This document shows, piece by piece, positions 26,650 to 26,990 of a stretch of 64,000 nucleotides of DNA. The DNA lies in assembly GCF_058153355.1 (NCBI RefSeq), contig NZ_CM177019.1; one strand, 5' to 3'. The position numbers and the translations under genes are program-made. Numbering within the stretch: the first letter of the stretch is position 1; every line of letters begins with the position of its first letter. A model generated the notes under the pieces. That model was not told where the DNA came from. It saw only the letters and a list, made by a program, of their open reading frames with translations, and did not search any database.

Positions 26650-26990
26650 TCCAATCCCACCTCTCCACATGGAGAAGGTGGGGCTTATTGCCTGATGCGC
26701 TACGCTTATCAGGCCTACAAAACAAAGCACAATTTGTTGAATTTTCACGTTCTTGTAGGCCGGATAAGGCGTTTACGCCGCATCCGGCGCGGCCCCTCTC
26801 CACATGGAGAAGATGGGCTAATTGCCTGATGCGCTACGCTTATCAGGCCTACAAAAACAAAGCACAATTTGTTGAATTTGCACGTTCTTGTAGGCCGGAT
26901 AAGGCGTTTACGCCGCAACCGGCGCGGCCCCTCTCCTCACGGAGAGGGTTTGGGTGAGGGAAAAGCCTCACCCCAGCCCTCTCGGGTAAA
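26650..26990. repeat. REP/BIME cluster with a tandemly duplicated unit of about 130 bp between mtlA and mtlD
   Basis: gcctgatgcgctacgcttatcaggcctacaaa...ttgtaggccggataaggcgtttacgccgcatccggcg occurs twice in tandem; the ORFs predicted here (26688-26957, 26582-26803) are artefacts. Confidence 0.85.

Follow-up and report, generated by a model that had tools for sequence, protein, structure and literature searches.

Tandem duplication of a BIME-1-like module bracketed by BoxC-like hairpins in the mtlA-mtlD spacer of Escherichia coli

In the account of Ton-Hoang et al. (PMC3333891), a bacterial interspersed mosaic element (BIME) of the BIME-1 type joins y and z1 repetitive extragenic palindromic (REP) sequences across a long conserved L linker with a frequent integration host factor (IHF) site, and occurs as a single copy. 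A further motif of relevance here is BoxC (also PIT or TM_ECO), which Holder et al. (PMC4666352) describe as an intrastrand-triplex motif with the consensus CCCTCNCCC N3-6 GGGNGAGGG N3 GGGNGAGGG, present in 23 strict copies in MG1655, and whose intergenic loci they report as unusually rearranged among strains through a mechanism left unexplained. We analyzed a 64,000-nt stretch of contig NZ_CM177019.1 (assembly GCF_058153355.1; hereafter the window, to whose positions all coordinates refer), in which the interval between mtlA and mtlD (hereafter the spacer; 26650-27012, 363 bp) contains a tandem repeat combining features of both these elements. The explanation we favor, and consider probable, is that a BIME-1-like module bracketed by BoxC-like hairpins was duplicated by mis-paired exchange, with a function that can be proposed by analogy.

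Tandem Repeats Finder recovers an array at 26660-26945 with a period of 135, 2.1 copies, 94% matches and a score of 514. A repeat search of the spacer likewise yields a 92-nt pair of 96% identity and a 42-nt pair of 98% identity at offsets of 134-135 nt, together with a 23-nt hairpin that occurs three times at intervals of 135 and 135 nt; the tandem signal is far above chance. A sequence-only reading of this DNA had proposed two tandem copies of a composite REP/BIME unit of about 130 bp in a 340-bp spacer. The duplicated composite unit is borne out both by the array call and by the recurrence of its Y and Z REPs and the right half of its linker at unrelated loci, and the two copies align at 94% identity, as related repeats. 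The dimensions need correction, since the unit measures 135 bp (range 133-135) and the spacer that holds it 363 bp, and the two full units are followed by a third, partial copy, the 3' hairpin, which had been passed over. That reading also did not contain the BoxC-like non-REP hairpins that bound the units, the series of zero to three copies among strains, or the rarity of the allele. Each unit is composed of a BoxC-like hairpin, CC(C)TCTCC-ACAT-GGAGAAG(G/A)TGGG, a Y-type REP, a 36-37-nt IHF-type linker and a Z-type REP, GTAGGCCGGATAAGGCGTTTACGCCGCA(T/A)CCGGC, and the two units of the window differ at 8 positions. The parts of the spacer are as follows:

26656..26683, plus strand: h1, the 5' BoxC-like hairpin, CCCACCTCTCC-ACAT-GGAGAAGGTGGGG (repeat family; pattern match with 2 mismatches; hairpin in the minimum free energy (MFE) structure)
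26660..26794, plus strand: repeat unit 1, in the 135-bp register from CCTCTCC (repeat searches, allele alignment)
26690..26718, plus strand: Y-type REP of unit 1, GCCTGATGCGCTACGCTTATCAGGCCTAC, in iREP orientation with a CTAC end (identical to the Y REP of canonical Y-L-Z elements elsewhere)
26719..26754, plus strand: L-like linker of unit 1, 36 nt (right half TTGAATTTtCACGTTCTT matches the family L motif)
26730-26742, minus strand: predicted IHF-like core ATTCAACAAATTG in the unit 1 linker (consensus match)
26755..26788, plus strand: Z-type REP of unit 1, GTAGGCCGGATAAGGCGTTTACGCCGCATCCGGC, with a 5' GTAG head (repeat search; sub-threshold Rfam naRNA4 match)
26793..26817, plus strand: h2, the chimeric middle hairpin, CCCCTCTCC-ACAT-GGAGAAGATGGG (duplication junction)
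26795..26929, plus strand: repeat unit 2 (repeat searches, allele alignment)
26824..26852, plus strand: Y-type REP of unit 2 (repeat search, canonical-element comparison)
26853..26889, plus strand: linker of unit 2, 37 nt, with an exact match to TTGAATTTGCACNNNNTTGTAGG
26865-26877, minus strand: predicted IHF-like core in the unit 2 linker (consensus match)
26890..26923, plus strand: Z-type REP of unit 2, with one stem substitution, CAACCGGC (repeat search)
26928..26986, plus strand: h3 and the conserved BoxC-like core, CCCCTCTCC-TCAC-GGAGAGGG-TTT-GGGTGAGGG-AAAAG-CCTCACCC-CAG-CCCTCTC-GGG (inverted repeat)
26987..27012, plus strand: mtlD leader, 26 nt, with the Shine-Dalgarno sequence GAAGG at 27000-27004

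The first hairpin begins 7 nt past the mtlA stop codon and lacks the third (GGGTGAGGG) arm. At the other end, h3 and the core can form two stem-loops or, alternatively, one 18-bp hairpin, and constitute the third, partial copy of the repeat, beyond which the mtlD leader is invariant in sequence among the E. coli alleles compared.

For a test of family membership, species-representative genomes were scanned with the pattern TTGAATTTGCACNNNNTTGTAGG, in which the linker core is joined to the REP head. This matched 39 stretches, every one of them in a Y-L-Z context, and individual genomes of Escherichia and Pseudocitrobacter hold several such loci, distinct from one another. The canonical loci share a layout of a Y-REP, a linker ending in ...TGCAATATA followed by TTGAATTTGCACnnnnTTGTAGG, a Z-REP and conserved outer flanks. 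The mtl unit resembles these BIME-1 (RIB/RIP) elements in having one Y and one Z REP in inverted arrangement with their GTAG/CTAC heads towards a long linker, in REPs that are identical or nearly so to the canonical ones, in the right half of the linker, TTGAATTTGCACnnnnTTGTAGG, which is common to more than 30 elements at other loci, and in an IHF-like core, ATTCAAnnnnTTG, with one mismatch to WATCAANNNNTTR as in canonical elements. It differs in that the left half of the linker is diverged, and in that the canonical outer flanks GAGACTGATGACAAACGCAA (left) and AACAAAGCGCACTTTGTCAG (right) are absent, their place being taken by CTTATT/CTAATT and by GCGG followed by the hairpin. The Z loop is TTTA instead of the TTCA seen in 15 of 23 canonical Escherichia elements; TTTA is also found in BIME-2-like alleles of this same spacer. 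We classify the mtl unit as BIME-1-like because it shares the REPs, the right half-linker and the IHF-like core but has a diverged left linker, no canonical outer flanks and a TTTA loop; it is possibly an "atypical" BIME in the published sense. Each linker contains a candidate IHF site, the second lying 135 bp from the first, and a literature search found no chromatin immunoprecipitation or electrophoretic mobility shift data on IHF for the mtlA-mtlD spacer. A blastn search with the linker alone (26851-26889) against E. coli genomes gave 1-3 places per genome, too insensitive a result for judging family membership, and the top matches examined were all at the mtl locus. Its total of 5,204 places in 3,908 records includes about 1,270 second places beyond what the 18 multi-unit genomes described below would explain.

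The tandem state itself (2.1 copies here, three in ten genomes) sets the locus apart from the definition of BIME-1 as single-copy (PMC3333891), and the array is a documented exception to that rule; the ancestral allele has one unit and shares the single-copy feature. In forming a tandem array of strain-variable copy number at one locus, it resembles BIME-2 and atypical BIMEs (PMC3333891). It differs from these in that the repeat is an entire Y-L-Z element plus a non-REP hairpin, in that the units are joined via this 25-nt hairpin and not by S, s, l or r linkers between alternating Y/Z2 REPs, and in that the linker within each unit is L-type. A scan of the spacer with Rfam found no RNA family above threshold, and at a permissive threshold naRNA4 (RF02564, derived from REP325) matched the two Z-REPs with 38.6 and 33.3 bits against a cut-off of 59.5. 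No repeat feature is annotated in the mtlA-mtlD spacer of the MG1655 RefSeq record.

As for the bracketing hairpins, the 3' core (26929-26960) lies at an edit distance of 2 from the BoxC consensus (one base substituted and one deleted) and is accompanied by a partial inverted partner, comparable to the "tandem inverted" TM_ECO sites (PMC4666352), and the mtl locus, like BoxC loci, is highly rearranged among strains. Unlike family members, the mtl copy falls outside the 23 strict MG1655 sites, the first two arms of its 3' hairpin have 8 nt instead of 9, and h1 and h2, without a third arm, are plain hairpins. A search of the spacer with the BoxC consensus, in which insertions and deletions were excluded, gave no match up to 6 substitutions. 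We take the mtl hairpins to be BoxC-like and not members of the family because the strict consensus failed, they are absent from the 23 copies, and h1 and h2 are two-armed. Of 5,426 complete E. coli genomes, 5,404 carry the 3' double stem-loop, once each and only at this locus, and its BoxC-like core is kept in Salmonella and in every Escherichia outgroup examined. Its motif is dispersed elsewhere, at position 40954 of the window and in records L022, L024 and L050. The stretch at 40954-40988 is a near-consensus BoxC/TM_ECO with 2 substitutions, matched by its sequence to copy #18 in the MG1655 list of Holder et al.; a search allowing up to 6 substitutions found no inverted partner, which in MG1655 is #17.

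Comparison with other E. coli genomes, which the sequence-only reading had put forward as a check, establishes the window allele as a duplication relative to the common one-unit allele. In the main series, the E. coli spacer is 94 bp long plus 135 bp for each of n units (n = 0-3), and the alleles found are:

94 bp, O157:H7: n = 0, no REPs, BoxC-like core only
161 bp, record L005 (strain OkiPb01679): partial deletion
229 bp, K-12: one unit, the commonest state among strains
363/364 bp, the window and records L001, L011, L012 and L064: two units
498 bp, records L009, L010 and L063: three units, sequence-verified
318/319 to 520 bp, records L003, L004 and L007: a different, BIME-2-like Y/Z array

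The 161-bp allele has lost h1 and the Y-REP in a 68-bp deletion that leaves the linker, the Z-REP and the core. The BIME-2-like array has the order h1, Y, truncated L, Z, Y, S, Z, and, at 318/319 bp in its shorter form, gains two further units of about 101 bp each to reach 520 bp; the spacer of E. albertii (L059) resembles the right-hand end of this array. With a 61-nt query centered on the chimeric middle hairpin, at least two units were counted in 18 of the 5,426 complete genomes (0.33%), and 10 of these 18 have two perfect junction places, that is, three units. Multi-unit alleles are also present on further draft contigs. A first junction query had matched 754 genomes with at least 80% coverage, and these were rejected as multi-unit when three that were fetched proved to be one-unit alleles matching as two permuted pieces. 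A rough estimate from an evenly spaced sample of the search ranking puts one-unit alleles at about 60%, those with no unit at about 15% and the BIME-2-like array at about 15%. All of the zero- to three-unit alleles and the 318-520-bp arrays stand alongside an intact mtlD.

Alignment of these alleles locates the junctions. The left hairpin of the one-unit allele reads ...TCCAATCCCA-CCCTCTCC-ACAT-GGAGAAGGTGGGG-CTAATT... and its right hairpin ...GGCGC(T/G)GC-CCCTCTCC-TCAC-GGAGAGGGTTTGGG.... In the window, h2 reads ...GGCGCGGC-CCCTCTCC-ACAT-GGAGAAGATGGG-CTAATT..., which is the left flank of h3 joined to the loop and right arm of h1, and is recognizable by the signature GAAGATGGGCT with the left flank GCGCGGCC. 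The O157 allele has ...TCCAATCCTA-CCCTCTCC-TCAC-GGAGAGGGTTTGGG..., the left flank of h1 joined to the loop and right arm of h3, so that its junction and the h2 of the window are reciprocal chimeras. Because both chimeric hairpins are observed, we infer that the duplication arose by exchange or slippage within the CCCTCTCC arm. The bracketing hairpins of a one-unit allele would mis-pair in this 8-nt arm, by replication slippage or unequal sister-chromatid exchange, and the exchange would give two reciprocal products, the O157-type deletion and the duplication; with two 135-bp units in place, a third could follow by ordinary homologous unequal crossing-over. Records L001, L011, L040 and L064 have a 3' hairpin loop of ACAT, the h1 type, in place of TCAC, and these ACAT loops in h3 suggest gene conversion between the bracketing hairpins. 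The locus offers base-resolved breakpoints, with both reciprocal products in one 8-nt arm, for the kind of instability reported around BoxC/triplex motifs.

The strongest competitor, which we nonetheless regard as unlikely, attributes the extra unit to the REP-associated Y1 transposase (TnpA_REP/RAYT, yafM), which would have cleaved single-stranded DNA between C and T near a REP and rejoined the strands. The enzyme is described as cutting between CC and T and between C and T in iREPs and linkers, at times far from the bound REP, and as recombining them in vitro (PMC3333891), whereas its activity in vivo is not established in the literature. While the junction octamer CCCTCTCC does have two CT steps and lies 4 nt from the Z-REP, it is situated in a non-REP hairpin common to both parental sites. 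The same authors propose the enzyme as a source of copy-number variation in BIME-2 and atypical BIMEs, and the TTTA loop of the Z-REP does match the Z of BIME-2-like arrays and not the TTCA of most canonical Escherichia BIME-1; however, deletion and duplication are exactly reciprocal at one microhomology, for which mis-pairing suffices and an enzyme is not needed, and the hairpin-element-hairpin layout with its empty/occupied dimorphism is also seen at aspC-gloC, where the hairpin sequence is unrelated.

Two further explanations carry very little weight. That two BIMEs were inserted independently side by side might be entertained in view of the dispersed and presumably mobile nature of REP/BIME elements and the 8 positions at which the units differ, but we give it next to no credence: a non-REP hairpin and short non-REP flanks are repeated in exact 135-bp register, the middle hairpin is composed precisely of parts of the two outer ones, and both units have the mtl-specific left half of the linker (1-3 places per genome in the linker blastn over 5,426 genomes, with the top multi-unit genomes inspected and extra places in about 1,270 genomes unplaced). 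An assembly artefact in the source sequence, to which tandem repeats are prone and which the lack of any identical complete genome might seem to favor, is just as improbable given that 18 independent complete genomes and draft contigs have two- or three-unit alleles with the same unit-specific substitutions, that the 8 differences allow reads to be placed unambiguously, and that the flanks of the window are within normal E. coli diversity.

The polarity of the series was examined in outgroup mtl loci located by exact-protein look-ups. One unit with the window-type linker is present in E. ruysiae (228 bp), in an E. marmotae-type genome (235 bp) and in Escherichia sp. E1V33. In E. albertii (213 bp), h1 and Y are present but the linker is short and of S type, and in Salmonella (129 bp) a single REP-like hairpin precedes the BoxC-like core and the leader. 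As the first three are all one-unit, the one-unit state is the ancestral one in E. coli and its closest relatives, the zero-unit allele being a secondary deletion and the window allele a secondary duplication. The 94-bp O157 allele had been entertained as an ancestral empty site, an option overturned by these outgroup spacers. Orthologous units in different strains show 0-6 differences, while paralogous units within one genome show 7-10, and in three-unit alleles the extra unit is 1 base off its neighbor. Furthermore, every multi-unit allele carries unit-2 signatures such as GGAGAAGATGGGCT. The shared unit-2 substitutions point to a single old, inherited duplication with later expansion to three units or, alternatively, to a duplication that arose between two diverged alleles; the third unit is recent.

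The bracketed layout of the mtl locus, h1-BIME-h3, has counterparts elsewhere, with the difference that a BoxC-like hairpin is used at mtl instead of a terminator. Among 36 Y-L-Z elements (L013-L051), 13 have left/right direct repeats above the 95th percentile of a control of 1,258 mismatched flank pairs, where about 2 were expected; the repeats are mostly small hairpins abutting the ends of the element, usually intrinsic-terminator stem-loops. At aspC-gloC (L065/L066), the empty allele of O157:H7 contains a single terminator hairpin; in E. coli C, where the site is occupied and 171 bp longer, this hairpin is followed by a BIME-1, a second and slightly diverged hairpin copy, and a T-run. A second tandem BIME-1 array is found in Escherichia sp. 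E1V33 (L037:1695-2063; period 173, 2.1 copies, 95% identity); each repeat there pairs a terminator-like hairpin, AAAGGCGCTTCGGCGCCTTT, with a canonical BIME-1, and a third copy of the hairpin closes the array, in the same layout as at mtl. It is possible, though we hold this idea only tentatively and with more doubt than belief, that hairpin-BIME-hairpin is a general footprint of BIME-1 entry and exit, in which the element would settle at the 3' foot of a host stem-loop and a hairpin of about 12-25 bp would be duplicated on the far side, mediating precise loss and tandem amplification. Such duplicated bracketing hairpins would explain the precise loss or tandem amplification of these elements. 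Reviews, as far as their accounts go, describe REPs as lacking target duplications (PMC3184786) and treat the mechanism of REP insertion in vivo as not established. We do not claim the bracketing pattern as new, since older primary papers may already describe it; it may, however, outweigh the mtl allele in importance.

In the RNA, the spacer has a predicted MFE of -168.6 kcal/mol against -114.3 +/- 5.8 for shuffled sequences (z = -9.4). This structure prediction, together with the flanking mtlA and mtlD, agrees with the suggestion in the sequence-only reading of a highly structured spacer inside an operon. Folding of the alleles with 0, 1, 2 and 3 units gives -54.7, -126.7, -185.5 and -249.8 kcal/mol, each unit contributing about -63 kcal/mol in predicted autonomous hairpins, and the probability that the ribosome-binding site (RBS) of mtlD is unpaired is predicted at 0.47-0.55, the same at every copy number. 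A consensus scan of the spacer found no intrinsic terminator and no sigma-70 promoter. The best experimental model for such an array is REP325 (yjdM-yjdN, the source of naRNA4), likewise a REP array between two co-transcribed genes, with the difference that it has 12 hairpins of BIME-2 type and that the naRNA4 model is sub-threshold on the mtl Z-REPs. As reported in a recent preprint (bioRxiv 10.64898/2026.03.23.713779), REP325 stabilizes the upstream mRNA and attenuates the downstream gene, partly via Rho, with a ladder of hairpin-terminated RNAs, and REP-separated tandem gene pairs genome-wide have a higher upstream/downstream expression ratio; stable RNA 3' ends mapped by Term-seq are also reported to coincide with BIMEs (PMC9023263). 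The proposal in the sequence-only reading that the repeat may influence mRNA processing or the relative stability of the mtlA and mtlD segments is in line with both publications. By analogy, the hairpins of the units in the mtlADR transcript would block 3'-to-5' exonucleases, stabilizing mtlA mRNA, and would partly attenuate read-through into mtlD-mtlR, so that a second unit would strengthen the bias of mtlA over mtlD without touching the mtlD RBS. If the second unit has any effect, it is thus expected to raise the mtlA:mtlD mRNA ratio with the initiation of mtlD translation unaffected. The alleles make up a natural dosage series (0/1/2/3 units of a REP module inside an operon) in which the flanking genes are identical and the RBS does not vary, and would provide a ready test of graded tuning of upstream/downstream expression by REPs. 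On its own, the window allele is a rare variant in the copy number of a repeat class already known, and leaves the understanding of the well-studied mtl operon unchanged.

Several points weigh against the combined explanation of mis-paired exchange and function by analogy. Eight nucleotides of identity are short for recombination, and slippage and transposase-assisted strand exchange are inseparable from sequence alone. Units 1 and 2 diverge by 5-7%, above the typical allelic divergence of E. coli, which implies either a very old duplication or exchange between unlike alleles. The bare IHF consensus has 77 matches in the window where 66 are expected, and is not statistically informative. On the functional side, the proposal rests on analogy because a literature search found no expression, RNA 3'-end or IHF-binding data on the mtlA-mtlD spacer, and REP effects are themselves reported in the above preprint as context-dependent, with no uniform change in mRNA half-life. 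The variable part of the spacer may be selectively neutral, and near-neutrality is equally compatible with the coexistence of zero to three units and other arrays beside an intact mtlD.

The array also bears on annotation, as a mechanically called open reading frame (ORF) runs through it:

26688..26957, plus strand: 89-aa ORF with a TTG start, in frame through the array, most likely spurious

The frame stays open because 135 bp corresponds to 45 codons, and alleles with 1, 2 and 3 units encode in-frame ORFs of 44, 89 and 134 aa, a growth of 45 aa per unit that is of relevance to annotation. The prediction that the repeat would create spurious ORFs in automated calls holds in part: the 44-aa ORF (L002:540-674, in a K-12-type spacer) is present in many GenBank deposits as "hypothetical" or "DUF3521 domain-containing", but in the RefSeq records fetched, annotated with PGAP, no coding sequence is called in the spacer. 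The 44-aa product matched no family in current Pfam-A, and the "DUF3521" label appears to be a leftover of a model built on translated REP DNA.

The flanking genes are all full-length matches over their NCBIfam cut-offs:

24736..26649, plus strand: mtlA, phosphotransferase system (PTS) mannitol transporter IICBA (NF011663, 1324 bits)
26647-26649, plus strand: mtlA stop codon, TAA
27013..28161, plus strand: mtlD, mannitol-1-phosphate 5-dehydrogenase (NF002648, 875 bits)
28161-28748: mtlR (NCBIfam model)

The MtlA, MtlD and MtlR proteins of the window are exact E. coli proteins, and exact copies of MtlD occur on 72 E. coli contigs. None of the complete E. coli genomes is identical to the window over the mtl region. 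The idea that the window represents an unusual lineage, raised by a best 12-kb match of just 96.5-97.6%, was dropped given that E. coli alleles are equally diverged among themselves and that these three proteins are exact E. coli ones.

REPs elsewhere in the window are associated with an insertion sequence (IS) of the IS110 family (IS621-like) at 35689-36982, whose 326-aa "RNA-guided transposase" ORF lies at 35882-36862. It sits within a Y-type REP (…CTTATCAGACCT-IS-CTAC…) and adjoins a Z-REP at 36993-37027. In strain EC7518 (L067), the aspC-gloC BIME is interrupted by the same IS end, and a second copy of the left end of the IS (TGTATTATCCCTCCAGTGCAGAGAAAATCGG…) is found in the window within 50174-50320, from about 50207, directly past a minus-strand Z-REP.

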